Positions 3,772-51,323 of a DNA stretch of 64,000 nucleotides are shown one piece after another. Within the stretch, counting starts at the first letter, position 1, and each line of letters opens with the position of its first letter. The position numbers were made by a program, and so were the translations under genes. Where the stretch lies: positions 544,001 through 608,000 of the forward strand of contig CM000433.1 in assembly GCA_000165345.1 (NCBI GenBank). Direction: 5' to 3'. Below the pieces are notes generated by a model. That model did not search any database and had not been told where the DNA came from. It saw only the letters and a list, made by a program, of their open reading frames with translations.

Positions 3772-4656
3772 TCAAATCATTATTTGAGGATCCAAATCTT
3801 TAAAGTATGGATGATTCATAGCATCTCTTGCGGAAATTCTCTTATTTGGATCAAAGCAAAGCATATTAGAGAGCAAATCAATTCCCTCTTGACAAAATCC
3901 AGGAATTATTGAACTCCAAGGCTTCTTTTCAAAGACCTGAAAAGTTCTCTGTTTCCATAAAGGCAATTCCTGAACTTGTGGCCATTCACGAGGATTCGGA
4001 GTTCCTAAAATTGAAAATATCTTCGGAAGCTGATCATCGTCTGTTACACCAGGGAAAAGAGGCTTTCCTGTAATCATCTCAGCAAAAATACAACCAATAC
4101 TCCAAATATCAACAGAAGTCGAGTACTTTTTGCTGCCCATCAATACATCGGGAGCTCTATACCAAAGAGTTACAACCTCATGAGTATAACTTCTAACAGG
4201 TATCCCAAATGCCCTTGCAAGTCCAAAATCAGCCAGCTTAAGTGCCCCATCACTATTAATCAAGAGGTTTTGTGGTTTCAAATCCCTATGTAATATCCGA
4301 TGTTGATGACAATGAGCAACTCCCCTCAAAAGCTGATATAAATATATTTTTATCTGACTATCCTGTAATCCTGTCTTGTTCTCATCCAGTACTTTTTTCA
4401 AGTCCTTTTCCATGAACTCAAAAACTAAAGTTAAACATCTCTCAGAGTGGATAACATCTATTAAGCTCACAATGTTGGGGTGGTGAAGCTCCTTTAATAG
4501 TGATATTTCACGAATTGCTGTGGAAGGAATTCCCTCATCTTCAGCGTCCAATCGAATTCTTTTCAACGCTACAATTCGGCCCTGACTATCCTTGGCTTTG
4601 TAAACCACCCCGTAAGTCCCCTCTCCAACCTTTTCCAGTTTCTGATACTTTTCCAT
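3772..4656 (-). CDS. Cyclin-dependent kinase, cdc2/CDK1/CDK2-like (PSTAIRE class).
   Basis: 294 aa. Contains the [11 protein letters not shown] glycine loop, the [17 protein letters not shown] (PSTAIRE) helix, [19 protein letters not shown] and WYRAPDVL. It is a complete single-exon kinase domain. Confidence 0.9.
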
Positions 4657-4964: not shown

Positions 4965-5836
4965 ATGACTGATATCCTTGGAGTTCCCCTCTGTTCTTTT
5001 AGAGATGATCTCTGGCTCGGAAGATTTACTTTGACTCCAGAGAATGCTTTGGAATATTTTTATCTGTCCCCATTTCACGACCCAAATAGTCTAAATATTC
5101 AAAGAAAACTTGGGAAGCACACTGAGTAAGTTTCTTGTAAGAATAATACACCATTTTTCTGGCCTGTATTATTCATTACTACGATCTTTATGTATTCTTG
5201 CAAAAAAATTTGAATTCATCCTATTCCATATTTTTAGTGCTTCCGAAGGATTTGAATATAGAATAACTTATATTAACGAAGAAGGTCTTGGAAATGTTCC
5301 GCAACCTCCTGGATCTACTTGGAACACTCCTAACCAATTCGGAATTTTCATAATCCAAAAGTTTTTCATTGAGTTCCAACGTGAAATCCCTCTCAATATC
5401 TACTATATATTATCAGGTACAATTTATGAAGCTCCAACTCTTAGTAATGTCTTCCTTCACAGAACAGCAGAAGCCTTTCTTAGTATGGAAAAAATATTTG
5501 ATACATTGAGTGAAATGTCAAGATTCAGTCTTTATGAAGGATATACCTGGGACAATCTTGAAGTAACCTCAAAAATTAACTCTGATATAGAAAATGCTGA
5601 TTCAAAAAATACCAATAGTGGTGAGGAAGAAAGCTTGGGTACGTTTCTTCTTTTTCTATTTTGCGTTTTTGTTAAACTAAATTACTTTAATTAATTAACT
5701 CAATTAAATAAATTCTTAATCTTTAGTTGAAATAACATATTCATCCAGCAAAAACTCTAAGATAGATAATATTCTCATGTCCACCAAAAAGGAGCTCTTC
5801 GAAAAGATTACAAACTTCGAAAAGTCAAAGAGTTGA
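4965..5836 (+). CDS. MED6: Mediator complex subunit MED6, three exons: join(4965..5125,5238..5638,5727..5836). Intron 1 is 112 nt and intron 2 is 88 nt.
   Basis: Exon 1 starts MTDILGVPLCSFRDDLWLGRFTLTPENALEYFYLSPFHDPNSLNIQRKLGKHT and ends at a GTAAGT donor. The unspliced frame hits TAA immediately after it. Splicing to the TTTTTAG acceptor at 5237 joins it in frame to the track ORF 5110-5694 (...GFEYRITYINEEGLG...FIIQKF...EIPLNIYYILSGTIYEAPTLSNVFLHRTAEAFLSMEKIFD). The spliced protein aligns along its length with MED6 from human and yeast (VLDYFSERSNPFYD; FIIRKQ; IPLADYYIIAGVIYQAPDL; SAFDEA; GYWW). A second GTACGT...CTTTAG intron replaces a hydrophobic read-through tail (GTFLLFLFCVFVKLNYFN) with a K/E-rich tail (VEITYSSSKNSK...FEKSKS). 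That second intron is less certain. Confidence 0.6.
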
Positions 5837-6419: not shown

Positions 6420-9119
6420 ATGGGTCTCAAATTTTCCACAGTTTCGTTGGCATTTGCTGCATCACTGTTTACAGTGCAAGCTGTAATAATGTACCTTTGG
6501 ATGTATCAAGATACTTTCTTATTTTTAATGTTTTTAATAGGAGACATACCATTACTAATGAACTTTTTGCTCAGAAGACACGAGTCAAATAGTGCTATTT
6601 CTGGAGGTCTTCAATGGTTTTGGTATAGTTTGATATTAACCCTTAAAATGGTTTTTTTAGTTTGGCACAAATCATTTGATACCCATGCAAATACAACGCT
6701 TATAGATAGATTACCATATACACTGTTTCCCTCTTCAATCATCCCAACAATATTATTCATTACGCCAGCAATTTATATTCTCCTGTCTTTCAGAGCTGCT
6801 CCACAATTATATGGCTCACCTATTTATGTGCTTTCAACAGAAAGTTTATTACACTCAGATTTGGTTACGCATGTCCTCTTAGACTTAATTGATATACTTG
6901 TTCAAATGCAACATGAGCAGTACCCAGCAAGTCTATTAATACATTCAACTTGGATTTATATGTACTCAGGTATTGTTTTAACTTTGGTATTGTTTTTCCA
7001 TGGTCTATCATTTCCAACAAGTGGAGGAGAACCAACTATTTCTCAAAGGCAGGGCGGGGATGTTTATATAGTAAGAAAGCACGCAGCTTTGGTTGGTATA
7101 TTTCTTGTTGACATTCCTCTATTGATCCTTAGAACATATATTTGGCTTCATTTTCCAGTATTTCCAGGGTTTAATCCATGGATTATGAAGAACATATTGT
7201 TCATCCCATTACAAATTGTAAGGTTAAACCAATGCAGGCTTGCTGAGAAGGAAAGATCTCATAAATCCCAAAGAGAAAGCTTCTTCTCAAGCATTGTAAG
7301 TAAAGATGAAGCAAGAAGTGGCTCGATTATTAAAAGAACTATTCTTCCATATAATTGTCAACAGCCTCAGGTGACACATAGTAAGCGTTCTGAAACCAGA
7401 AATAATACAATGGAGCTTCCTTTGATTCAAAATAAAGATGATTTTAGCGATCATTTAAATTTGAGCTCAGATAACATTAGCTCGAGCTTAAATAATAATT
7501 CATCCCAATTTAAAAATAATTTCCCATCAAAAAATGAAGGTTCTAGTATGCAAAATATTGGTAGCAATAATTTTTCAACTGGAAATATACAGAAATCCTT
7601 TAATATGAGTATTAGACAAAGAATCCCAAATAACGACGAAATTGGCTACCAAGAAAATGCTTCAGGACAATTTTCTCAAAATTTTTCAAATAGGAATGAC
7701 CATTCGAGCAAAGAAGTTGATTCTACAATTAAAAGAAACTTTGACCACATAATTAAAGATATTAATTCAACTAGAAAAATTCCAGCTCGAAGTTTTTCTC
7801 TTGGGACGATTTTAAAGCAGATCATTTTCATGTTCCAAAGAAGTGGCCAATCTTCATATTTATCTTCAATTCTCGATAACACCTTGAATGTAACTCAATT
7901 CCAAAATATCAGGCTTTCTCTTGCACTTATAATCCCTCTAATTTCCCAAATTGCACTTTCTGTGGTATGTAGAACACCAGAACAAGGTGGAATGGAAGTT
8001 CAATGTAATTTGAACTGGTTTTTCCCAAATTTAACTGAAGAAGGTGGATTTTATAAAATGAAGTGCAATGCAACTTATATTTCATTTATGTGTATTAACT
8101 TTGTCTCATACAACCTATTGTGGTTTGGAATGACAAAATACTTTGAAGTCTTTTGTGGGGCAATTTACCAACTTGTAATCTTTAGCTCCTATTTCTTTGT
8201 AGTTCACAGCATAAGAAATGCAAAGTTTGTTGATCCTTTTCTTTCTGGGGTCAATATGGATATTGGGAATATTTTGGTTTTACTTTGCGTTTGCCCCGCA
8301 GTCCTTACCCTACTATTCAATTATTTCCCTCTATCTAGTGCCTTTCTCGGAAGAAAACATCTCAGACTTGCAACTCCATTTTCAAAAAAACAGTGGATTG
8401 TAAACAAAATTCCTGTTAACACTGAGCAAAAGAACCAAGAAATCGAAATTAACAAGATTCCAAACGAAAGTAAAAGTTCCAGAGATGATGAAGTCGGCTA
8501 TCTTAATATTGGATCTTGTTTGCTTCTTTTAAATTGCAGATTTGGAATTGCCCCAGTAAGCATGAACGAGCTTCTAATTGGTCCTGATACAATCAAAGGA
8601 ATCAGACTTATTGACCTTCTATTGTCTACTTTCTATAGAGACGTTTTATTCATTTTCGTTACCAGAGGCATTTTACTTACACTTTGTTTTACATGGGCAT
8701 CTCTTGGAGTATTTGTTTCGCACATAACTTTCATGATTTTCTATGGAATTACTTCCCATACTATCAGGCTTCTTGCACTCAGAAGATTTGAACTCAAAAT
8801 CTTATTTCAGAAGATTCTTAGAGATATTGTTAAAGAAGATACCATCATCCCAAATTTCTCCAACCAGTCTTCAATTATTCTTTCCAACTTCAACCAATTA
8901 TATAGAAATGAAGAATGGAAAAATTCTAGTCTTCAACAGTCATTCTTTAAAGACAAACAAGCTTCTATTCAACACAATGAACTCTTGCAAATTATTAACC
9001 AAATCTCCCTCCCCTACATTTCTCACAACAATATAGTCAAGAAATACTCTTCTTCAGGATTTTTCTCTTCTCCTGGGAATATTTTACTTCCATATACTAT
9101 TGGAACTATTCCTCTATAG
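6420..9119 (+). CDS. Polytopic membrane protein of unknown function. It has about 7 N-terminal and about 4 C-terminal predicted TM helices around an N/S-rich low-complexity loop.
   Basis: 899-aa uninterrupted ORF. It shows repeated ~20-residue hydrophobic stretches and a central run rich in N, S and Q. No catalytic motif is recognisable. Confidence 0.5.
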   Translation: MGLKFSTVSLAFAASLFTVQAVIMYLWMYQDTFLFLMFLIGDIPLLMNFLLRRHESNSAISGGLQWFWYSLILTLKMVFLVWHKSFDTHANTTLIDRLPYTLFPSSIIPTILFITPAIYILLSFRAAPQLYGSPIYVLSTESLLHSDLVTHVLLDLIDILVQMQHEQYPASLLIHSTWIYMYSGIVLTLVLFFHGLSFPTSGGEPTISQRQGGDVYIVRKHAALVGIFLVDIPLLILRTYIWLHFPVFPGFNPWIMKNILFIPLQIVRLNQCRLAEKERSHKSQRESFFSSIVSKDEARSGSIIKRTILPYNCQQPQVTHSKRSETRNNTMELPLIQNKDDFSDHLNLSSDNISSSLNNNSSQFKNNFPSKNEGSSMQNIGSNNFSTGNIQKSFNMSIRQRIPNNDEIGYQENASGQFSQNFSNRNDHSSKEVDSTIKRNFDHIIKDINSTRKIPARSFSLGTILKQIIFMFQRSGQSSYLSSILDNTLNVTQFQNIRLSLALIIPLISQIALSVVCRTPEQGGMEVQCNLNWFFPNLTEEGGFYKMKCNATYISFMCINFVSYNLLWFGMTKYFEVFCGAIYQLVIFSSYFFVVHSIRNAKFVDPFLSGVNMDIGNILVLLCVCPAVLTLLFNYFPLSSAFLGRKHLRLATPFSKKQWIVNKIPVNTEQKNQEIEINKIPNESKSSRDDEVGYLNIGSCLLLLNCRFGIAPVSMNELLIGPDTIKGIRLIDLLLSTFYRDVLFIFVTRGILLTLCFTWASLGVFVSHITFMIFYGITSHTIRLLALRRFELKILFQKILRDIVKEDTIIPNFSNQSSIILSNFNQLYRNEEWKNSSLQQSFFKDKQASIQHNELLQIINQISLPYISHNNIVKKYSSSGFFSSPGNILLPYTIGTIPL

Positions 9120-9925
9120 TATTCTCCCATATCTCTTATATGCTCATTATATTGCAGCATTAATTGATTTTATACTTATATATTTTTTTTAGTATTCAAA
9201 CATTTATTCACTCTCTTTTTTTAATATTTAATTCGTATTATTATCAATCAATAATATTTTTTATTCAAACTCTACTCTTAAAATTCTATCCTTTACTATT
9301 TATTCCGCTTCCACATGCAAAAATTCTCAATTCCTGTCATTGCATGCAAATTTTATGCAAACCATTTCTTAATACCGGTTTATTATTAACATTTAGGCGC
9401 CAAGACCCAGACACGTCATTATGAAGTTAAATAAAGTTTTTTTTAATATAAAAACTGAAAGGTTAAGTGTTGGGTTCTCCTTGCGGGAACCCGATTCTAA
9501 AATTGGCTTTAAAAACAGAGAAGATTAGCAAACCCCTGCGTAAGGCTGGTTTCATTCGCCGAAAGGTATAACCAATTTTTTTTTTCCTTTATTTTTTTTA
9601 TTACAAAAGATAAACTAGGCTCATATGTTAAGTGATATATTCTTCTATGTATACCGGAATCTATTTTCAGGTTCTGAATTCAATCAATGAACTATTATTT
9701 CTAATCCAAAAAACCATAAAAACTTAGATAAATGCTAGAATTTTATCCTTTCTAGATCATACATGAAATACTAAGCTATGATTCTATAGCAAAGCTCGTT
9801 ATATATCCTTTATAGCTATTAAATTTTAACCTTTTCCTAATTTATATTTGTCTCTGCTAGACGTGACATGAAATATGTCAATTTAACAATAATTAATTGA
9901 TCTGAAACTTCCAACATTTTATAAA

Positions 9926-12900
9926 ATGGAAAATGATACGAAAATATGTGGAGTTCAGCCATTAAGCTCACTAAAGCCTATTAACTCTGTTTTGGCAATT
10001 AAACTTCGAAATATTGATCTTATTTTAGCAGGATTTGGAAATGAGCTGAGAATATACTCCCAAAACTTTGAAACAATCTACGATCAATTAGTTTACCACG
10101 ATTCTCATAATATTTATGGGATAAAATATGGTGAGTTAGATGATTTAGTTGCTATATATGGTCTTAACAAAGTTGTTTGGTGTCGTATACATATTCAGGA
10201 ATCACAACAAGATATCTCCGACTCAAAATGTCAGAAAATTCATTCTATCAAAGTTGGAGAATTGAACGAGTATGATCTTTTCCTTGAATCTTGTAATTAT
10301 CTTAAAGGAAAATGGCTAATTGGAAGTTCTACTGGCAAAATAAGGCTTTGTCAATTTGAACAACAAACCCAAGATTATATCATTCCTAAGATTCAAAATC
10401 TTATCATCCCTCAATCTCCAACTCTATATTGCATGAAATTTCATATACTTACTGATTCTGAAGAAGTCATGATTGTATCAGGATCTGCTTTCTCTACTGT
10501 CAATGTTTCAATATTAACCATTAATAAAGAAAGTATTATTCAGGAACAAATCCTTAAAGCTCATAATGGAGTTGTATATGATCTCAAGATTATAGGAGAT
10601 GGATCTGGTATTCTATCTTCATCTGATGATAGAAAGATTATTCTTTGGATGAAAGAAGAAAATTGTCTAGAACTTTCTAAAAATACTCAAAAGTTCCGAT
10701 TCTATCCTAAATATATACTAATTGGGCATGAGGCTATTATATGGTCCATAGATACTTTATGGGAAAAAGAACTAATAGCATCTATTTCTGAAGATGGAGA
10801 TCTATTTATTTGGAATCTAAAAGAAGTTAAATCAAAATCTTATGTCAATATAAATGGTAATGATATACAATGTATTAATGGTCCTAATTCAAAAGTATCA
10901 AAAGCTCATCAAGGAAGAGGAGGAAGAGTTATTCATTCTATGTCTCAATTATTAGAAAATAATAAAAATTATTGGTCTTTTATTACTGGAGGAGAAGGAG
11001 GAGATTTAAAAGTCTGGAAATTTTTTATAGGATATGAACAAACTAATATTGAAGATGACAAATTTGAGTTAACTTGTGAAGATGATTATTTTGCATTTTC
11101 AGAATCGAAAATCTCTCCAGATATAAATAACCAGCCGGAAACTAATGATTCAAATTCTATTTGGTATCAAGGAGCTCATTTGATAGATCAATCTAAACTT
11201 ATTGGAGTTACCAGACAAGGAATTCTAAGCATTGGGATGAAATGTTCTCAAGGTTCATCACATGAGTGGGAAAGTATTAAAATTCATGATTTAGGAGATT
11301 TGGTGTATTCAATGTCTTCTTTAGATAACGGACATTTAGTTCTTGGATCTTCCAGAGGGAAAATTATACATGGACTAGTAAATTTAATTAAAAATGAAAT
11401 GGAAGTTAAAAATGAGCTTTTCTTGCCAAATTGGACAGAAAATATTACTTTTGTCCAGTATTTTACTATTATAGAGAATGAACTTTATCTTGCATTTTCT
11501 TCATGTTCTAAAGGATTTGTTGGAGCTTCAGTATTCCACAAAATTGATCACAATTCAGAAGATGAATCCACTAATCCATGGATTACGTCAATAGTACCAA
11601 TAAAAGGAACCCCAAAATATGGAGAATTAAAATGTTTGGATATTTTTAAATATAATAATAATACTCAAGGTAAAATAGTATGTGGAACAGTAAGTGGAAA
11701 CATATTTATATTGAATTTCAAAGTTTTAAAAAAAGAGGTTAGTCAAGATAGACTGGGGATTAGCTCGATTTCTGATGGATTAGATACTATTATAGAAATT
11801 TGGTTATCTAATGTATTAAGTGCTTCTCATAAGGGGAATGTCTCAAGTCTTAACTGGATTAATGATTCGAACAATAATTTGGTATTTCTATCAACAGGTC
11901 AAGATGGCAAGATTAATCAGTATTCAGTGAAAGATGAAGCTACATTAGAATGGTCACATAGATGGAATTCCCAGTGTGAATATATAGTTAGATGTTTTAA
12001 GTTGAATAACAGTAATTGGTTAATAATAGGAGCAGTAAAACATGAGTTATTCTTTTACTTAGCGAAGGAAAATGTTACATCTACTCCAATATTATTATTA
12101 ACACATAAATTTGGAGGAATTAAACGTTCATTCCAAATTAATATAAGAAATTATAATGATAAGGATCTTTTGGAAGTGATTTGGTGTCAGAAACCATCAA
12201 TTAGGATTGATCAATTGAATATTAGAAAGATTTTAGAAAGTCAAAACTTTTCAAATAATTTCCTTAATCCATTATTAATGACAAAGTGTTTAAACGTGAA
12301 TCCTCCTTCAAGGCTAATTCATTCTTCAGCTTGGATGAATAATAATATAGTAATTTTTGGAGGGGAGGACCATATTGTAAGATTTTATGATGTATCAAAC
12401 CCCTCAAAAATGTGTTTAATACATTCAATTAGGCTTTTAGATCCTATTAGAAGGCTTAAAGTGGTAAATATAAGAGAAAATGTTGAAATTTTAATGATAA
12501 CAGGTGGGAGACAAATGTTTCATATGTTTGAGATTAGAAAAGAAAGGAGTGAGAGTGATATTGTGATAAAGACAATTTTTTCGAATAATAATGACAAGAA
12601 ACAGAATAATTGTAGATTTATCTCACTAGATTATGTAATTGAACCAATTTCAATGGGTGAAAATTATAAGTTGATTGTAATTGTAGGTTCGAGTAAAGGA
12701 GAAATATTGATATTTTCTTTCCAATTATTAGATTTGGGAGAAAAGTTGGAATTTAATTTGAAGAAAATTGTTACTTTTGGTTTACCTTTTGTACCTTTTT
12801 CAATAAGAGCGGAAAATGATTCAGGAGAGATTTTGGTGCTTGTGGGGCTTTCAAATGGGAGCATTAAGGTACTCAAGAGTAGAAATTTAGGAATATCTAT

Positions 12901-13407
12901 AAATGATTTTAACATAGATTTAGAACTCAAGTTTGAGATAAAAACTCACAATTCTGGAGTAAATTCTGTAATACTATTGGATACGGACAAGAAAGATTTC
13001 AGATTAATTGCGTCTTCTGGACATGACCAAAAGATTTCAATTTCAAGAATAATTACAGACAAGAAAAAAGAAGATAGTATTATAGTGGAAACATTATTTT
13101 CAGTTTCGAATGCTCATTTTTCTTCTATCAGAGACCTTTGTTATGATCCAATAAAAAGAATTCTATATTCGATTTCATGGGACCAAATACTTAATTCTAA
13201 TAGATTCGATGAACTAATGCTAAATTTTGTGGAAACAAGAAAGTTTCCAATTTCTATTTGGGATCCAAGTAAGTTTTAACGAATAAATTATTCACAACGA
13301 TCACTAATTACATTTACATTTTAGGCTGTATTTCTATTTCTAATAGTAATGATAAAATATTAATTTCAGGAGGCTCAGGATCCTGCCAGCTATTTAATCT
13401 TGTTTAA
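9926..13407 (+). CDS. Large WD40-repeat protein (about 1140 aa, size and architecture reminiscent of WDR6-type proteins). A probable small 3' intron gives join(9926..13268,13325..13407).
   Basis: WD-like blades are visible throughout (GVVYDLKIIGDGSGILSSSDDRKIILW; GHEAIIWSIDT...DGDLFIWN; ...SSGHDQKISISRI). The track ORF ends ...ISIWDPSKF*. A perfect GTAAGT donor overlaps that terminal codon region, and a 56-nt AT-rich intron ends in CATTTTAG. Splicing appends SCISISNSNDKILISGGSGSCQLFNLV*, which completes a canonical WD blade. Confidence 0.55.
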
Positions 13408-14410: not shown

Positions 14411-15136
<726 letters not shown>

Positions 15137-18480: not shown

Positions 18481-19593
18481 TCACTTTGGAATCTGGATTG
18501 TACTAAGATTACTATTATTTTTACTTGACAAGTACGAAAATGATGGATCTAAAAGCATGATATTCTGGTTGATATTATTAATTAGTGCCGGATGATATTG
18601 GTTACTTGGTTGGTTGTTAAAGTATAATGGTACATTATAATATGGCATATTTGCTAAATTAAAGTATGAATCTGGGTTTAACATTATCTTTGGTATTTCT
18701 GGCAAGAGTACTTGGGATAATGTAGGGGATGATGATGATGCGGTAGAAGACCATGATTGATTAAGATTTGTGCTTTTACTCTGACTCTGATGATTAAATT
18801 GTATTATTTGATGTATTAATGAAGTATCAAAACCTACATTCTCTACTTTACTTTGAGATGTAGTAGCCTTTTTCAAGTCATCGTTGCTCTCCTGTAGAAA
18901 ATCATTACTATTATCAAGAGCCACGACATTCTTCTCAGCACTTACTACTTCTTGTTTCTCAAAGATTTCTGTTGCTGCTGTTGCAAGCAAATATAGGTAA
19001 GAAGAAGAGGGTAGATGGTAGTCCTTATGGCTACTTTTCATATCTAAGTCTGAAAAGTTATTTTCAAATTTGAATACAAAATTTGGTGAAACCTCTGGAG
19101 ATACTGGGGAAGATGATGAGTCAATATTATTATAATGGCCTTTCAATGAGGAGTATTTGACACTAGAAATGGATGGAGGCGAATGATTTGCAGCATTATT
19201 GTTACTTGCTGTAACATTTCTTTCTATCAAATTTTCACTATATAGTTCATTCTTAAGCGAAGCAAGTCTTTTATTACTTGTTACTGATGGCGAGTTTTGC
19301 TCATTAATCGAAGATCCATTATAGCTTAAGCTCTTTCTACCTCTCTTATTTATAAGTTTCATCTTCCATGGGTCGCTAAAGTCAAAAGGTAGTTTATTAT
19401 TATTATTAATAAATTTGAATGCATCTCTTGCCATATTCCATGCATTCTCTTCCCCGTATTTGTTAAAGGAGTAGGACTTTTGGTGCCTCCCATTTTCCCC
19501 TGAAACACTGGAATTCTTTATTCTGTAGACTAACCGTACCTCATTCTTATTTACCGGTTTATATATTTGAATTGCTCGAGCTTCCATAAACAC
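18481..19593 (-). CDS. Putative ApiAP2-type DNA-binding protein, with a single N-terminal AP2-like domain followed by an S/N-rich low-complexity region.
   Basis: Residues ~15-60 (NKNEVRLVYRIKNSSVSGENGRHQKSYSFNKYGEENAWNMARDAFKF) fit the AP2 strand-strand-strand-helix pattern (GKxxKSFS.KKYG.EEA..LA). The remainder is low complexity. Confidence 0.5.
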   Translation of the reverse strand: MFMEARAIQIYKPVNKNEVRLVYRIKNSSVSGENGRHQKSYSFNKYGEENAWNMARDAFKFINNNNKLPFDFSDPWKMKLINKRGRKSLSYNGSSINEQNSPSVTSNKRLASLKNELYSENLIERNVTASNNNAANHSPPSISSVKYSSLKGHYNNIDSSSSPVSPEVSPNFVFKFENNFSDLDMKSSHKDYHLPSSSYLYLLATAATEIFEKQEVVSAEKNVVALDNSNDFLQESNDDLKKATTSQSKVENVGFDTSLIHQIIQFNHQSQSKSTNLNQSWSSTASSSSPTLSQVLLPEIPKIMLNPDSYFNLANMPYYNVPLYFNNQPSNQYHPALINNINQNIMLLDPSFSYLSSKNNSNLSTIQIPK

Positions 19594-20325: not shown

Positions 20326-21036
20326 TTATTTAATTTTATTAACATGCAAATTAATTTTATATGATATAAAAAACGTGGATAACATAATAACAATCAATAG
20401 AGCCTTTGAGAAATGGTGGAAGAGGAATTCAATAACATTTGCATTGCTCTGCTGAACCTTCTTCTCAATACACCTATTGACCTCTAGAATTCTTTCCTTA
20501 TTACATAATTTCTGATTCAGTTCTATTCCAATAAGTTTGGAATCTTTGTTGTCTTCTGAAAAACAACTCTTTATTGTTTTCCTGCAAAAATCCAAAAGGC
20601 TTTCATCCTGCGCGGCAGAACTGCATGCCTGCACTCTGGCGGGCTCCCCGCACTCCCCAAAAATTGTGCAGAGCTTCTCTGCACAATAGAATTCCCCGCT
20701 TTGGAGAGATGGGTGAGACTTTCCCATGTGTTGGTCATAGGTTTTTTCATCTTGAAATATTTCCCCACAAAATCCGCATTGTCTTTCTCCCGTTGGGTAA
20801 ACTATATTGATTTTTTCTTCATAGTTGAATATGTGGTGTTCTTGGTTGAAAGCACATTCAGGCAGTAAATGCTTTGAGATATCTTTTTTATCTTTTAGAA
20901 GTTTCCTTATTGCATGACTTACTCTTCTGGAGACTTGCCTTGAACAGTTGATATCACAGTATATTTGGGATATCTTTGTTAGAAAAAATAAAATAAGCGC
21001 CAAATGGAATGTTTTAGTATGAGCCATTCTTTCCAA
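20326..21036 (-). CDS. Small secreted or type-I membrane protein with a C2H2-like zinc-binding motif. Function unknown.
   Basis: Has an N-terminal signal peptide (MAHTKTFHLALILFFLTKISQIYC) and a CGFCGEIFQDEKTYDQHMGKSH motif (C-x2-C...H-x5-H). It has further Cys residues and a C-terminal hydrophobic anchor (LLIVIMLSTFFI). Confidence 0.4.
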   Translation of the reverse strand: MERMAHTKTFHLALILFFLTKISQIYCDINCSRQVSRRVSHAIRKLLKDKKDISKHLLPECAFNQEHHIFNYEEKINIVYPTGERQCGFCGEIFQDEKTYDQHMGKSHPSLQSGEFYCAEKLCTIFGECGEPARVQACSSAAQDESLLDFCRKTIKSCFSEDNKDSKLIGIELNQKLCNKERILEVNRCIEKKVQQSNANVIEFLFHHFSKALLIVIMLSTFFISYKINLHVNKIK

Positions 21037-24081: not shown

Positions 24082-25719
24082 TCAACATTTTGAGGAAAGC
24101 TCTTTAATAATAGTAACTAAAGTCTTGACGCCAAAGCCATTACCAAAGGTTCCCATTCCAGAACAACCAGCAATATCAATGTGGGCATATTTCACATTCT
24201 TGTCTACAAACTCGCACAAAAAGGCAGCTGAGGTAGAAATTGGGGCCTTTCCTTCAGAAGTATTATTTAGGTCAGCAATTTCAGATTTGACCATTTCTTG
24301 AAATTCTGGGTCTAAAGGTAATTGCCAGAATTTCTCATAAACAGTTTTGCCGCATGTTTGAATCATCTGGAATAATTCGTCATTATTTCCAAGAACAGAA
24401 GCATATCTGCCCTCAAAAAGCCTATAGTTAGCCCCTGTCAATGTAGCTAAATCTATGACAGTCTCGACTTTGAGGTTGCAAGCATAGACAAGGGCATCAG
24501 CTAGAGTGAGTCTTCCCTCTGCGTCAGTATTACCAACTTCAATGGTTTTTCCATTAGAGGCAGTGATAATACACCCTGGTAAATAAGCATCCCTGGAGAC
24601 CAAATTATCACATATTGCTGAAATAAAATGAACTTCAATATTCTCTGGCTTAATTAGCCCAACTGAGAGAGCTGTGCCAAAAACAGCAGCAGCACCTCCC
24701 ATATCTCCCTTCATAAAATGAATCATTTGATGCTTAATATTGTATCCACCAGTATCCATAGTAATTCCCTTACCTACTAAGGCAATTCTCTTTTTAATCT
24801 CTCCCTTTGGTTTATAAGTAAGGTGGACAAATTGAGCTGGGGACTTGCTACCCTGTGCAACAGCTAGAAAAGCTCCCATCTTAAGTTCTTCACATTCTTT
24901 TGGTTGAAGAATCTTTCCTTCAAGCCCAACAGATTTTGCCATACTAATAACTTCTTTTGCCATATTGACTGGGTCACAATAATTTGGAGGAGCAGATGTA
25001 AGATCTCTTGCGAATAATAAACCCCTAGAAACAGATTGAGCATCCAGAACTCTACTATTACAGTCCTTTATAGTATCTTCTGACCTAAGAACAAAGTGAA
25101 TTCTTTCAATCTTCTTTGTTGGTTTCTTTGGCTCAGAGCCTACAATGTTTCCTTTAAATCTCTTTTCAATTGTGTTATCGATTGGAAACTGAGTACAGAA
25201 ATACATAATATCTGAAGATACCACATTATCAAAACCAAGAACAACTGTAAAACTTTGAATATTCTTATTTTTTTTCTGGAATTCATTCATTTGAGTTATC
25301 ATTTTATTGAAAAATACTGGACTTGTTTTCTTATTCTCACCAAATGATATTAACATCAAATACTTAAACGGGTATTTTGGAGGCAAATTCACATGAATTG
25401 TATTATTTTCATCTTTAAGAGATGATTCTTGATTTGCGGTTTCTATAATATCTTTAAGTATTCCATTTAAAATAGTGTCTAAAGATTCATAAAATGAAGG
25501 TATACTTTGCATAATATCTTTATTTGGAACGCATAATACGAGACAGTCCCCTTTTAAGCTTTCGTCATATTTATCTTTTAGGACTGAAAATTCAAATTTT
25601 AATGATTCATTAAATTCCGACATTGGAATGCATTCTGGATGTATTGGATTTACCATTTTCTCAATTTCTTCAATTCTTCTTGGCTCAAAAATAATCAATT
25701 TTGATGTAACTAAGTCCAA
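24082..25719 (-). CDS. Leucyl aminopeptidase, peptidase family M17.
   Basis: 545 aa. The C-terminal catalytic domain has the M17 signature NTDAEGRL plus VGKGITMDTGGYNIK and metal-ligand context. The N-terminal domain is less conserved. Confidence 0.9.
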   Translation of the reverse strand: MDLVTSKLIIFEPRRIEEIEKMVNPIHPECIPMSEFNESLKFEFSVLKDKYDESLKGDCLVLCVPNKDIMQSIPSFYESLDTILNGILKDIIETANQESSLKDENNTIHVNLPPKYPFKYLMLISFGENKKTSPVFFNKMITQMNEFQKKNKNIQSFTVVLGFDNVVSSDIMYFCTQFPIDNTIEKRFKGNIVGSEPKKPTKKIERIHFVLRSEDTIKDCNSRVLDAQSVSRGLLFARDLTSAPPNYCDPVNMAKEVISMAKSVGLEGKILQPKECEELKMGAFLAVAQGSKSPAQFVHLTYKPKGEIKKRIALVGKGITMDTGGYNIKHQMIHFMKGDMGGAAAVFGTALSVGLIKPENIEVHFISAICDNLVSRDAYLPGCIITASNGKTIEVGNTDAEGRLTLADALVYACNLKVETVIDLATLTGANYRLFEGRYASVLGNNDELFQMIQTCGKTVYEKFWQLPLDPEFQEMVKSEIADLNNTSEGKAPISTSAAFLCEFVDKNVKYAHIDIAGCSGMGTFGNGFGVKTLVTIIKELSSKC

Positions 25720-31070: not shown

Positions 31071-32212
31071 TTACTTAAGTTCATTATACACTTCTATTCA
31101 ACATTGTTGGGGCTAGTTGCTCGATACTGATACTTCGACGGTAAATCTACTAATATCATAACTACTACTATAACTGTAGGTACTTCAAGAAATCAACTTT
31201 TTCTCAAAATATTTGCCTCTCACTATTAAAGAGCTTATATATATACATATATGCATGCATGCATGCATATATCCTACAACTGTGACAATCTTGACCAGAA
31301 CCTATTCTAATACCGAAGATTTTCTAACCTTTCTATATTGGCCACTCTCCCCCCCTCGTGTTGTTACTATCCTACTCTCAGTAGTTTATTTTATAATTTT
31401 CACTTTTAACCCACTCCCCCCTCCCCTTTCCTTTTCTTTCTCTCTTTAGACTCGTCCTCTCTCTTCCTTTTATTACCAGTGCTTCAACTCATGCGCCATA
31501 TGTGCCCCCGCCTATTTGAACGCGGGCAAGTGCCGCATGTGCCCGCCCATTTCTTTAATTGAAATAATAAGTATAAATAGGCAAAAAAGAAAACATGACA
31601 AGGCTCCCGTCTCGAGACGTGAAGTGCAGGTCATGAGGAGGGGTATATACGCAACAAAATACATTATAAGGTACATACTGGAGTGTAGCAGATCACAAAT
31701 GGCTGGGGGGACAGCCCGAAGGATTGGCCAGGGAGATCAATAATTAAAGTTTACAACTAATGTTGAATTTTGGACAAAACGAGTGAAGATCATCGTTTAA
31801 ATGCTGTGAAGCACAGTATGTGCTAACGTCTCTTGAGTCATAGAGAGAATGTAAAGAAGATTAAGGTTACTGATTCGATACTTGATAACGAAGAAGCTAA
31901 CATTGGAATATCTAGATTGAAGCAGGAAAGTAATATTGTGCGTGTAAGGTGAATAGGATCTAGGTAATTAAGAATTTGGACTTTTAATAAGGATAACATA
32001 AACGCATTATACTGCGTAAAGTGCCTTCAATTAGAATAAAGAGGACGATATATTTTTATACCTATACCGTTTATTGTCAATATTAAAGAGAAAAAAAAGC
32101 AGGAAGTGTCATTTCAAGTTTGGCCTCGCTTTTTTTTTTTCTCAACCCATTCAAATATTCAATTTGCTATTTTAACCTAAATAGTCTGAACAGAGATCGT
32201 CGTTAATTTCAC

Positions 32213-34426
32213 ATGAATTCAAGAATGTTTGCCACTCCTAGACCACGTCCACAGTTTGCAAATTCATCAACACTTGGTGGTCTAGAATTTGACCAGAAGC
32301 AAATTTCATCAACATCTACTACTACTACTACACCTTCAACATCGTCCTCAAATTCCATATCAACGCCTTGCATAGCGTCCATAATTGATGGAACCTCTAC
32401 GTTTGGCACAGATCAAAACTACTTTGATGAAATTTCCAGTATGATCGATAATTCTCACCTAGAAACTCCCCAAACTTGTAGACTTGGAAATGCTTCCCAT
32501 ATTCTTAGAATCCCCAAACAAGGTGTCGGAAACATGGGATGTGGCACCATACACGACATTTTAGGCCAAACAAACTGTCCTATGGATATCAGCAATAAGG
32601 TACTCTTAGCCAAAGAGCAACACTCTAGTGTGAAAGAGCATCAACCAAATGGGAATCACTCAACTGGAGCTTTGGGTGGAGCAGCAATGATGAGTATATT
32701 TTCTTCTCCGAAGTCATTCGTCTGTACTCTTTCTTCTACTAGATCAACTTCGGCCCCATACACTCCTACAGTTGTAGATGAGTGTTCACCTCCATGTAGC
32801 CTCCCAGCACCACCAGGATCTGACCCTTTTACTATTTCAGGGTTTGGGCCTGAATCTACATCTACTGATCCAATATCAGGTGACTTTTCAGCCCCACTTC
32901 TTAATTACCTCAATGATGGACTCAGCTCCGATTCCTGGGGGAGCTTCCTCCCCTACTCAAAGATCACCGATTACTGCTTTGAAAACTCCCCGGATAATGT
33001 TATCCTAAACGGTAACGGCAATTGCAGGGGTAGTAGCAGTAGTAGTAGCAGCAGCAGCACCAGTGGTGGTAATGTCAACAGCAATAACAATAGTAATAAT
33101 AACAACGCTAGTAACAGCAACAATAATAGCAATAACAATATCAACATCAACAATGGCCATGGAGGCTCTGTAACTTCCACACTTCCTTCAGGCATTTGCA
33201 GTGGCATCAACCCTAGTAAATGGGGGGGAAGCGTTTTACCTAAATCAAATGGCGTCACCACGCCTGGAGCTGGAGGCAAACACACTACAAGCACAACTGC
33301 CACTACCGTCGCCGCCTCTGCCACCACCACCACCACCCCATCTTCCCCCTCTTCTGTTATCTTATCATCTAAAGCAAATGAACTCCTGGATTATATACTC
33401 ATGAGTATCGTCAAAGATAATGGACACACCGGAAATGTTTTCGAGCAAGCGTCCCAAATACTAAGCTCCACTGCTGCTCTACTAGCAACCAGATTCAACA
33501 AGGAGGTCCCGAACTTCCAATCCAATAATAATAATCACCACCACTCTACGATACCATCTAATTCATCGAATTCCAACTCTGGAAATGGAAACTGGAGCCC
33601 CACCACACTTGGTGTAGGAGGACCCAACTTTGCCGCCCCGACTATGCTTGCACACCCTGACGAGTTCAAAAATCCTTCATCTTTTCTCAAAATCTATGGT
33701 GATCCACTCTGTGGAAAACAACCCTCTAATGGGAGCCAGAACCCGCCTCTAATGGGAGCTTTGAGCGGGGCACCGCATGAATTTCAGGCGGGAGTGAATG
33801 GGGCGGGTTTTGCGAATGCCAACCCCATGAAAGGGCAGAATGGGAATTGGGCATGTTGCAAATGCAGTAATGTCAACTTTCCACGACGCTTTAGATGCTT
33901 CAAATGCGGAGAGTACCGAGATGAAATTGGGGATAAGATCGTCGCAGAGTATGCCAAGCACGTGTATTTACATCATCTCAAGGCCTATAGGTCTTTTAAT
34001 AATGGGAATACAGGTGGCAACTCAGGTAGCAGCAGTACTGGTAATAATAATAATAGTAACAGTACTTGTACTAATACTAATTCCCAGTCGACCTTGGGCT
34101 CAGGTTCGGGTAGAAATGGAATGGTTTCAAATATCCAATCCAGCTTTAATGAAGGCTTACAACCTGTATTTGTCCAGCGAAGTAATAGCAATAGTGGCTT
34201 CATTGCCACAAACCTACCTTCGAATCTAAACTACAACGACTCCAATGGAGGACATCTTAATAACTCTAAGCAATTGAATAACCAAATTTGTTCCGATGGA
34301 ATTAATAACAGTACTTGCTCTACCAGCTCCTCTACAAGCGTGTCTCCAGTGGGTTCGGCCTCAACATCATGCCAGTCAACAAATAAGAAGCAATCCTCCT
34401 CGAAGGTTATGTCAGTTAATTTATAG
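32213..34426 (+). CDS. S/T/N-rich low-complexity protein with a C-terminal RanBP2-type zinc finger.
   Basis: 737 aa with long poly-S, poly-N and poly-T runs. WACCKCSNVNFPRRFRCFKCG matches the W-x-C-x2-C-x3-N-x6-C-x2-C RanBP2 ZnF pattern. The 5' flank is unusually GC-rich. Confidence 0.6.
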   Translation: MNSRMFATPRPRPQFANSSTLGGLEFDQKQISSTSTTTTTPSTSSSNSISTPCIASIIDGTSTFGTDQNYFDEISSMIDNSHLETPQTCRLGNASHILRIPKQGVGNMGCGTIHDILGQTNCPMDISNKVLLAKEQHSSVKEHQPNGNHSTGALGGAAMMSIFSSPKSFVCTLSSTRSTSAPYTPTVVDECSPPCSLPAPPGSDPFTISGFGPESTSTDPISGDFSAPLLNYLNDGLSSDSWGSFLPYSKITDYCFENSPDNVILNGNGNCRGSSSSSSSSSTSGGNVNSNNNSNNNNASNSNNNSNNNININNGHGGSVTSTLPSGICSGINPSKWGGSVLPKSNGVTTPGAGGKHTTSTTATTVAASATTTTTPSSPSSVILSSKANELLDYILMSIVKDNGHTGNVFEQASQILSSTAALLATRFNKEVPNFQSNNNNHHHSTIPSNSSNSNSGNGNWSPTTLGVGGPNFAAPTMLAHPDEFKNPSSFLKIYGDPLCGKQPSNGSQNPPLMGALSGAPHEFQAGVNGAGFANANPMKGQNGNWACCKCSNVNFPRRFRCFKCGEYRDEIGDKIVAEYAKHVYLHHLKAYRSFNNGNTGGNSGSSSTGNNNNSNSTCTNTNSQSTLGSGSGRNGMVSNIQSSFNEGLQPVFVQRSNSNSGFIATNLPSNLNYNDSNGGHLNNSKQLNNQICSDGINNSTCSTSSSTSVSPVGSASTSCQSTNKKQSSSKVMSVNL

Positions 34427-49271: not shown

Positions 49272-50279
49272 TTGAAAGAAATGAATTTGATAATAGGAAA
49301 GGGAAGAAAGCTTTCTTTGCATATTATGGTTTTGGCTTTAATCTTGGTAATTCAGTTAACTCAGTGTGTAAAATGCCTAGACATAACTAGATTAAACGCT
49401 CTTTTGCCAGGAGAGCGATATAATTTGTATACTTCGTTATCGAAAAAAAGAGCTTCATTCTTGGAATTATATTTAATTGAAGAGGAGAAGAATGATGAGG
49501 AAGGAGAACCAAAGGTTAAAGTAGAAACTGATTGTATGTTGAGCGTTTTACAATACAAATTGGTAGATTTATTGATAGGAGATCGTGAACTTAATCAGAA
49601 TTTTGATACAATTACAGCAAAAAAGTGTTTGAGAAAAAGTTTAAGTCAGTTGCAGAGCTTTTATGTACGATTTTTTGATTTAAAACTAATTTACAAACCA
49701 AACTGTTTTGAGAGAGCTTGTTTTAAGAAACCAGAGAAGGTTTTCTTTAAAAATTTGGAGAATCTTGCTCTATCTATGTATTTTTTTTTCACTGTAAATA
49801 ATTTAATAAAAGAAAAAGGTGGTTTTTCAAGAGAATTGGCTCTTCCACAGGAATTGGAACATAAAAATGAAGCAATTTCTGTTTTGAATAATGTCAATCA
49901 ACTTCATTCATATAAAGAAGGCTTAAAAGTTTGCATGAAATTTAATATGTTGGACATTATGTTATATCCAAGACTAAACAATAAGACTCTATTATCAGAA
50001 TTTAAGATTTTCTCTTCAATAGTACGTATTTTGACAGCTAATGTTGAAAAACATGTTCGTTTGTACAAATATAACAAAAATAATTTTGAAATAAATGGGA
50101 AAAAAAATTATAGCAAGAAGTTGATTTCAGATATTAAGAACATTAGGTCTTCAATGAAACTGCTTTCCTATGTAATTCTCACTAAATACTTTATCATTGC
50201 AGACATTTTTAATTTGGAAATATATGAACAGATTTACAATTCTATCATCAATACTAATACCACTTATAATGCATATTAA
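49272..50279 (+). CDS. Predicted secreted protein (335 aa). Function unknown.
   Basis: Signal peptide LHIMVLALILVIQLTQCVKC. No recognisable motif. Confidence 0.45.
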   Translation: MKEMNLIIGKGRKLSLHIMVLALILVIQLTQCVKCLDITRLNALLPGERYNLYTSLSKKRASFLELYLIEEEKNDEEGEPKVKVETDCMLSVLQYKLVDLLIGDRELNQNFDTITAKKCLRKSLSQLQSFYVRFFDLKLIYKPNCFERACFKKPEKVFFKNLENLALSMYFFFTVNNLIKEKGGFSRELALPQELEHKNEAISVLNNVNQLHSYKEGLKVCMKFNMLDIMLYPRLNNKTLLSEFKIFSSIVRILTANVEKHVRLYKYNKNNFEINGKKNYSKKLISDIKNIRSSMKLLSYVILTKYFIIADIFNLEIYEQIYNSIINTNTTYNAY

Positions 50280-50600: not shown

Positions 50601-51323
50601 TTATTCTTGTCTCTTTATTACCTTTTTAGTTAAGTAACAAAGAAGCAGAAGGTGCTTGACACTTTCGTGCATTGTAAGGAGGAGTAATTTTCCTGTATTA
50701 ATACATTCTAGAGCTTCAGAATGAGAGCAATGCGATGTATTTGCGATTATTCCATCTCTAATATTTACAATTTCTCTTCTTAAATCTTGGTCTTCAATAG
50801 ACCAATCCCAAGATCTTGCTAAAAGCATTTGAACTGTAATATCTTGAATATTAGCTAAATCAATTAATGAATAGTAATAGTATGCTCCTTGGTTTGCTAA
50901 AAGAAACTTATTTAATTGTTCATTCTCCAAATTTTTAACATAAACCTTTGGATAATTCAAAGCCACGATTTTTCTCTTAAATTCAGTTAAAAAAAGAAGT
51001 ATTGCAACTTTTAAAGTTTCTGTTGCCTCAAATATACTTAAATCTTTTCCTGATTCATTGTAGAAATCTTTCTGTTTCTCATCTGAAAGATCATCTTTAA
51101 GTTGTCTCAAGGTTTCTTCACTATAACATCTTTCTAGAACTTGACTATTCATTGATTCCAATATTATTTCTTCTTCATCTTTTATGTTATTGTTAATAGA
51201 TAGAGAATGAGCTTCTTCAAGGTGGAATTTTGCGTCTTTTTTTTTCACTACAACCACATCAAATTCACATAGACGACATGCTAGATAGTTTTGGATATTT
51301 TCAGTTAACTCTTTCTTCACCAT
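50601..51323 (-). CDS. Hypothetical soluble protein (240 aa). Function unknown.
   Basis: Clean ORF with protein-like composition and no TM segment or signal peptide. Confidence 0.4.
   Translation of the reverse strand: MVKKELTENIQNYLACRLCEFDVVVVKKKDAKFHLEEAHSLSINNNIKDEEEIILESMNSQVLERCYSEETLRQLKDDLSDEKQKDFYNESGKDLSIFEATETLKVAILLFLTEFKRKIVALNYPKVYVKNLENEQLNKFLLANQGAYYYYSLIDLANIQDITVQMLLARSWDWSIEDQDLRREIVNIRDGIIANTSHCSHSEALECINTGKLLLLTMHESVKHLLLLCYLTKKVIKRQE

Follow-up and report, generated by a model that had tools for sequence, protein, structure and literature searches.

The 64,000-nt stretch of DNA analysed here (the window, to which positions refer unless stated otherwise) has a GC content of 31% and carries, at positions 4965-5836 of the forward strand, a gene of three exons (4965-5125, 5238-5638 and 5727-5836) whose product is a member of the Med6 family. 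The gene, MED6, is flanked on one side by a complete CDK gene on the reverse strand (3772-4656), whose product matches PDB 2qkr, and on the other by a TMEM121-like ORF of 899 aa on the forward strand (6420-9119), an arrangement of eukaryotic type. A further ORF of 194 aa, with a TTG start, is found on the forward strand at 5110-5694 and reads through the gene, beginning in the last part of exon 1, read in another frame, and continuing across intron 1 and exon 2 into the first part of intron 2.

Several other features are recognizable along the window. A full-length gene for the U6 spliceosomal snRNA (9473-9580, forward strand; Rfam RF00026, model positions 1-105 of 105, 62.2 bits for a gathering score of 44) sits between the TMEM121-like ORF and an ORF at 9926-13279. 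The forward strand has a polyubiquitin gene of three repeats at 14447-15136 (PF00240, 329 bits), and the reverse strand encodes an M17 leucyl aminopeptidase at 24082-25719 (PF00883, 334 bits), whose mechanically called ORF starts with TTG. The GC content reaches 43.6% at 32001-34000 vs. the window mean given above, and this segment coincides with an ORF of 737 aa at 32213-34426. Five ORFs of 236-514 aa, at 18481-19593, 20326-21036 and 50601-51323 on the reverse strand and at 49272-50279 and 59128-60672 on the forward strand, match no Pfam family at E <= 0.001. The first start codon is other than ATG in four of the five, as in the read-through ORF 5110-5694, and because of this some of them may be downstream exons of spliced genes.

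The in-frame ATG of MED6 is at 4965, and the frame that it opens spans 4965-5129. The TAA that closes it (5127-5129) corresponds to bases 2-4 of a GTAAGT donor at 5126-5131, and exon 1 is therefore taken to end at 5125, in phase 2; it is 161 nt long and encodes MTDILGVPLCSFRDD...RKLGKHT plus two bases of codon 54. Intron 1 (5126-5237) has a length of 112 nt and a GC content of 27%, starts with GTAAGT and finishes with TTTTTAG (3' end ATATTTTTAG). Exon 2 (5238-5638, 401 nt) encodes the core of the Med6 domain in the same frame as the listed ORF 5110-5694 and ends in phase 1. It is followed by intron 2 (5639-5726), an intron of 88 nt and phase 1 that runs from GTACGT to CTTTAG (3' end TAATCTTTAG), with a GC content of 19% and stops in all three frames, and by exon 3 (5727-5836), whose 110 nt include the TGA at 5834-5836 and encode a charged C-terminal tail, VEITYSSSKNSKIDNILMSTKKELFEKITNFEKSKS. 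The spliced coding sequence amounts to 672 nt, that is 223 aa and a stop, and the peptide across its junctions reads LGKHTDASEGFEYR and ...EEESLVEITYSSSK, with ...EEESL directly followed by VEITY... where exon 2 joins exon 3. A preliminary description of this DNA had proposed that the frame from the ATG terminates at a GTAAGT, that a 112-nt intron ending in TTTTTAG restores it into the ORF 5110-5694, and that a second intron, GTACGT...TTTAG, leads to a charged C-terminal tail; each of these proposals agrees with the anatomy given here.

Both introns have the features of the U2-type GT-AG class, namely an extended GTAnGT donor and a pyrimidine-rich tract before the AG. Counted on both strands of the 64-kb window, GTAAGT is present in 21 copies (0.16/kb), and GTACGT in seven (0.05/kb). 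The GC content of the exons (39%, 34% and 32% for exons 1-3) is higher than that of either intron. The frame-preserving, stop-free GT..AG pairs were enumerated, eight for intron 1 and 22 for intron 2, and in each intron the combination of a GTAnGT donor with a T-rich acceptor is found in the proposed pair only. In the re-annotation of the C. parvum genome the mean intron is 99 nt long with a GC content of 22%, and the share of intron-containing genes rose from 4.3% to 10.8% (Isaza et al., 2015; PMC4637869); by these published means of length and GC content, both MED6 introns are typical. The introns of the C. parvum IOWA-ATCC annotation are stated by its authors to be 100% RNA-seq-supported, a statement that is not gene-specific (Baptista et al., 2022; PMC8744675), and it is from published annotation statements that we infer splicing of MED6 in vivo. 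An exact search for both exon-exon junction strings in JGI metagenome contigs gave no match and is uninformative, as Cryptosporidium cDNA is unlikely to occur there.

The spliced 223-aa product aligns with Pfam PF04934 (Med6) over profile positions 2-133 of 133 through its residues 11-151, with 77.7 bits (E = 9.2e-22) for a curated cut-off of 27 bits, a comparison that the preliminary description had suggested. The exon-1 ORF by itself, whose ATG had been read as a MED6 N-terminus, indeed matches the profile at positions 2-37 (32 bits), while the read-through ORF by itself covers positions 53-133 (46.9 bits), which are the share of exon 2, the match starting from its residue 42, shortly before the last of the residues that come from the intron. 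Splicing joins these two partial matches into one colinear, full-length match. When the PDB sequences were searched with phmmer, every match was a Med6 chain (S. pombe, human, mouse and S. cerevisiae, plus 6xp5_F), and a profile of the genus matched the Med6 chains of the PDB down to E = 1.6e-11. In a profile alignment by hhalign, the genus profile and human MED6 were aligned with 97.3% probability (E = 2.3e-11) over 137 columns, residues 3-160, an alignment that spans the exon 1/2 junction; over residues 23-160, the human MED6 sequence used here agrees with the alignment from the PDB search.

An exact-sequence look-up found the spliced product to be identical to QOY41685.1, WKS77907.1 and KAL5368683.1 (CPHLJ_5g2520), deposited as "Mediator complex subunit Med6 [Cryptosporidium parvum]", and UniRef100_A0A7S7LFT6 is the same C. 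parvum Med6. Near-identical Med6 entries are available for C. hominis, C. meleagridis, C. tyzzeri and the chipmunk genotype (the C. hominis protein retrieved from a large protein collection has 223 aa and is 99% identical), and full-length orthologues were found in C. ubiquitum, C. canis, C. xiaoi, C. ryanae, C. muris and C. serpentis. The neighbouring CDK matches PDB 2qkr ("Cdc2-like CDK2/CDC28 like protein kinase") with 676 bits over all 294 residues, and we take this crystallised CDK to be that of C. parvum cgd5_2510. From the deposited exact product and the match of the CDK neighbour to 2qkr, it follows that the gene is cgd5_2520 of C. parvum chromosome 5. QOY41685.1 presumably belongs to the annotation of Baptista et al., as the product naming that it has in common with C. 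tyzzeri suggests.

In a full-text search of the literature for "cgd5_2520" no paper was retrieved, and the identifier was met only in a supplementary dN/dS table, where the pair cgd5_2520/CHUDEA5_2520 is given with an identity of 0.991, a dS of 0.047 and a dN of 0.004 (Isaza et al., 2015; PMC4637869). An identity of 0.991 equals 221/223 and fits the two substitutions that separate the product of the window from the C. hominis protein CUV06240.1 (P0001). This protein is presumably the CHUDEA5_2520 product and, if so, the full-length model was already in the RNA-seq-guided re-annotation of Isaza et al. (2015). The spliced model is contained in the current annotations of C. parvum, C. hominis, C. 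meleagridis, C. tyzzeri, C. ubiquitum, C. canis, C. xiaoi, C. ryanae and C. muris. Thus, where the preliminary description spoke of a "hidden" intron-containing MED6, the gene model stands, being identical to the deposited Med6, but the word "hidden" does not, as the current annotations are already spliced: the MED6 gene, both its introns and its name are already known, and neither this housekeeping gene nor its introns are out of the ordinary.

For comparison, orthologous loci were fetched from C. meleagridis, C. ubiquitum, C. canis, C. xiaoi, C. ryanae, C. bovis and C. muris, and the order CDK (reverse), Med6 (forward) and TMEM121-like (forward) is kept in all seven of them; the introns were compared in seven species, namely C. 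parvum and six of the fetched loci, C. bovis being left out. A brute-force search for GT..AG splits reproducing the deposited protein had one solution in each of these seven species, from C. parvum to C. muris, and placed both introns at an identical codon and in an identical phase. Exon 1 always ends in phase 2 and has a length of 161 nt except in C. muris, where it has 164 nt. Intron 1, which invariably starts with GTAAGT, has lengths of 112, 115, 101, 117, 66, 71 and 67 nt, and intron 2, of phase 1 and with a GTA[ACTG]GT donor, has lengths of 88, 87, 86, 68, 76, 86 and 74 nt, so that the introns vary between species by non-multiples of three. In all seven species the exon-1 frame meets a TAA within the intron-1 donor, but the conservation of this stop is a trivial consequence of the phase-2 donor, G-TAAGT. 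Among the protein-search matches, there is one Med6 per species.

As the orthologous gene models could partly be propagated by homology, the behaviour of the DNA itself was examined, since indel phase, dN/dS and stops are DNA-level measures that do not depend on the annotators. The exons are consistently closer to those of C. parvum than the introns are. Intron 1 has an identity to its C. parvum counterpart of 0.28-0.64, vs. 0.56-0.91 for the flanking exons. Listed in the order exon 1, intron 1, exon 2, intron 2 and exon 3, the identities to C. parvum are 0.91, 0.64, 0.86, 0.72 and 0.84 for C. ubiquitum, and 0.65, 0.28, 0.56, 0.42 and 0.48 for C. muris. The gap columns in exons come in multiples of three (0, 3, 6, 9, 15 and 33), whereas those in introns mostly do not. 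By the Nei-Gojobori method, applied against C. meleagridis and C. ubiquitum, dN/dS is about 0 for exon 1 (pN 0.00 in both comparisons, with pS of 0.20 and 0.40, respectively), 0.08-0.12 for exon 2 and 0.05-0.20 for exon 3, and purifying selection thus acts on all three exons. In general, removal of the introns gives one continuous conserved frame, and the intervening DNA behaves as non-coding, with stops, out-of-phase indels, fast divergence and a lower GC content.

The ORF 5110-5694 is an annotation artefact and corresponds to no gene product. Its N-terminus is a junk string, ...SKFLVRIIHHFSGLYYSLLRSLCILAKKFEFILFHIFS, that results when intron 1 is translated in the frame of exon 2 (a sample peptide of this translation is FLVRIIHHFSGLYYSLLR), and the intron-1-encoded residues have no conservation and are broken by stops in other species. 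In this frame intron 1 is fully open, over 37 codons, in C. parvum only, while it contains at least one stop in each of the other six species, including the close relative C. meleagridis. These stops identify the long read-through ORF as an accident of C. parvum, and the open frame appears to be due to chance; since intron 1 is open in the frame of exon 2, ORF callers extend the false ORF upstream.

That a single-exon call at this locus would yield a truncated or chimeric protein had been foreseen, and such calls do occur in several collections. The record XP_626189.1/EAK88217.1 (P0022), a "hypothetical protein, partial" of 199 aa from the 2004 Iowa II annotation, is the read-through ORF taken from 5095 to 5694 of the forward strand; with respect to ORF 5110-5694, it has five extra upstream residues and an L for the TTG codon, and about 37 of its residues come from intron 1 and 18, forming a hydrophobic pseudo-tail, from intron 2. 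It represents the same locus and contains exon 2, but lacks exons 1 and 3 as protein, and it has been superseded by the three-exon model. Among the Logan ORF calls, P0006 (194 aa) is identical to ORF 5110-5694, and P0021 has 54 aa. The C. bovis protein FG379_001449 (P0012, 153 aa) is another single-exon miscall, with its start in intron 1 and its end in intron 2 (assembly GCA_009768925.2, VHIT02000045.1, positions 1300-2100 of the fetched locus L006). In the C. bovis DNA, exon 1 is intact (MTDIKGTPICSF...KYGKPI) and is followed by the donor GTAAGT at L006:1460, and exon 3, equally intact (VKIIYTPNKYSKIDNILTSVKKEISDQINELEKG and a stop), comes after the donor GTATGT at L006:1919.

The pieces returned by the ORF callers (54 aa for P0021, 194 aa for P0006 and 199 aa for XP_626189.1) are what would be expected of an unspliced locus, that is, of a disrupted MED6 pseudogene or of two independent ORFs of 54 and 194 aa. 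However, both pieces are colinear halves of one domain, the interruption falls at the same codon in seven species across the genus and is bounded by strong splice signals, and the translation of intron 1 is stop-broken in the six species other than C. parvum; moreover, a pseudogene would not show the strong purifying selection found on all exons, and no second MED6 copy is present among the Cryptosporidium matches. The probability left to an unspliced locus is close to nil, and the pseudogene and the two-ORF readings were both ruled out by selection and conservation. Regulated retention of intron 1 could be imagined to produce a regulatory isoform, either the N-terminal Med6 peptide of 54 aa or a protein with an altered N-terminus, but nothing here speaks in favor of it, the open intron-1 frame is not conserved even in C. 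meleagridis, and retention is considered highly unlikely.

Other questions concern the sites themselves, once splicing is accepted. The 8 and 22 enumerated pairs leave room, in principle, for frame-preserving splicing at other positions, e.g., at an acceptor at 5261 for intron 1 or at donors at 5618 or 5621 for intron 2. These pairs, however, have weak donors (GTCCCC, GTCTAA, GTGGTG, GTGAGG and GTTTTT) or purine-rich acceptors (GAATATAG and TAAGATAG), they would remove residues that are conserved in the genus, and the proposed sites alone are common to all seven orthologues; hardly any weight can be given to splicing at other sites, and the alternative pairs were ruled out by their weak signals and their lack of conservation. 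If, on the other hand, only intron 1 were real, exon 2 would continue into 5639-5694 up to the TAA at 5692-5694, giving a product of 205 aa with a hydrophobic tail (GTFLLFLFCVFVKLNYFN), and the exon-3 ORF would be fortuitous. The frame is open for 18 codons beyond 5638, the Pfam and PDB matches stop before the tail, family membership being independent of exon 3, and a profile of the tail alone retrieved no Med6 chain (see below). Against this, the read-through tails of intron 2 are 4-22 residues long and mutually unrelated across species, whereas the exon-3 peptide has six invariant residues, a dN/dS in the range given above and in-phase indels; all seven species have the GTA[ACTG]GT donor at one and the same codon, together with a pyrimidine-rich acceptor, and intron 2 has a GC content like that of C. 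parvum introns. Translation into intron 2 is thus judged very unlikely, and removal of both introns, with exon 3 as the end of the coding sequence, is the reading that we retain.

Within the exon-3 tail, residues V188 (whose codon is split by intron 2), K199, D201, N202, L204 and S206 are invariant in the 11 sequences of the genus. A helix is predicted at 198-222 by AlphaFold2 run on the alignment of these 11 sequences, but with a pLDDT of 39 and a pTM of 0.34 the model is too poor for a fold search. A profile of the tail, searched against all PDB sequences, retrieved no Med6 chain and gave only a spurious match, 13 residues long, to a peptide of hexokinase-2 (E = 0.59). The hhalign alignment with human MED6 ends at residue 160 and does not reach the tail, so that the tail is a putative counterpart of the canonical Med6 C-terminal helix. 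When 1.84 billion representative proteins were scanned in full, 505 relatives were returned at E <= 1e-3, and many of those that align into the tail by MAFFT have x-[IV]-D-x-x-[LV] where Cryptosporidium has K[IV]DN[IV]L; this motif lends soft support to the tail being the Med6 C-terminal helix. In the yeast and human structures, a C-terminal helix that follows a flexible linker anchors Med6 in the head module, and the exon-3 tail would be a likely candidate for the helix connecting Med6 to the other parts of this module.

Considered as a whole, the sequence evidence leads us to assign a probability of about 95% to the reading that 4965-5836 of the forward strand is the single-copy MED6 gene of C. 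parvum, from which two introns are spliced out and which encodes Med6 of the Mediator head module. Its primary transcript would contain two short U2-type GT-AG introns (5126-5237 and 5639-5726), both excised by the spliceosome to leave the coding sequence of 672 nt for 223 aa, and the conserved Med6 domain of the product would extend over residues ~11-151. The Mediator complex links transcription regulators to RNA polymerase II, and by homology the product would be the Med6 subunit of its head module, so that a function in Mediator can be presumed for Cryptosporidium Med6. In a comparative study in which apicomplexans were among the groups examined, Med6 was one of the 17 core Mediator subunits conserved across eukaryotes (Bourbon, 2008; PMC2475620).

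The value of the locus is that of a validation case, in which a reading of the raw sequence rebuilt the three-exon model exactly and foresaw the artefact of the ORF callers. At least two public entries still contain the artefact, namely XP_626189.1 of the 2004 Iowa II RefSeq and C. bovis FG379_001449, and Mediator inventories or orthology based on those proteomes would show a truncated, chimeric Med6.

With respect to known systems, the gene does not differ from the C. parvum Med6 cgd5_2520/CPHLJ_5g2520, with which it has a 100% identical product and the same CDK and TMEM121-like neighbours in common, the two being the same gene. The Med6 subunits of the solved Mediators (human 7emf_F, mouse 6w1s_C, S. 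cerevisiae 3rj1_G, S. pombe 5n9j_S and 4h61_A) have the same Med6 domain, colinear with that of Cryptosporidium over residues ~3-160, and the human protein is 34% identical to the Cryptosporidium one in the hhalign alignment. Inside this domain, about 20 residues of Cryptosporidium Med6 (~69-89, GLGNVPQPPGSTWNTPNQFG) form an insertion that human Med6 lacks. The insertion (window ~5283-5345) is highly conserved within Cryptosporidium, and only P0023 and P0030 of the 13 distant relatives aligned are filled across most of its columns. By comparison with the solved Med6 subunits, the acidic, Ser-rich linker and the C-terminal tail of the Cryptosporidium protein are short.
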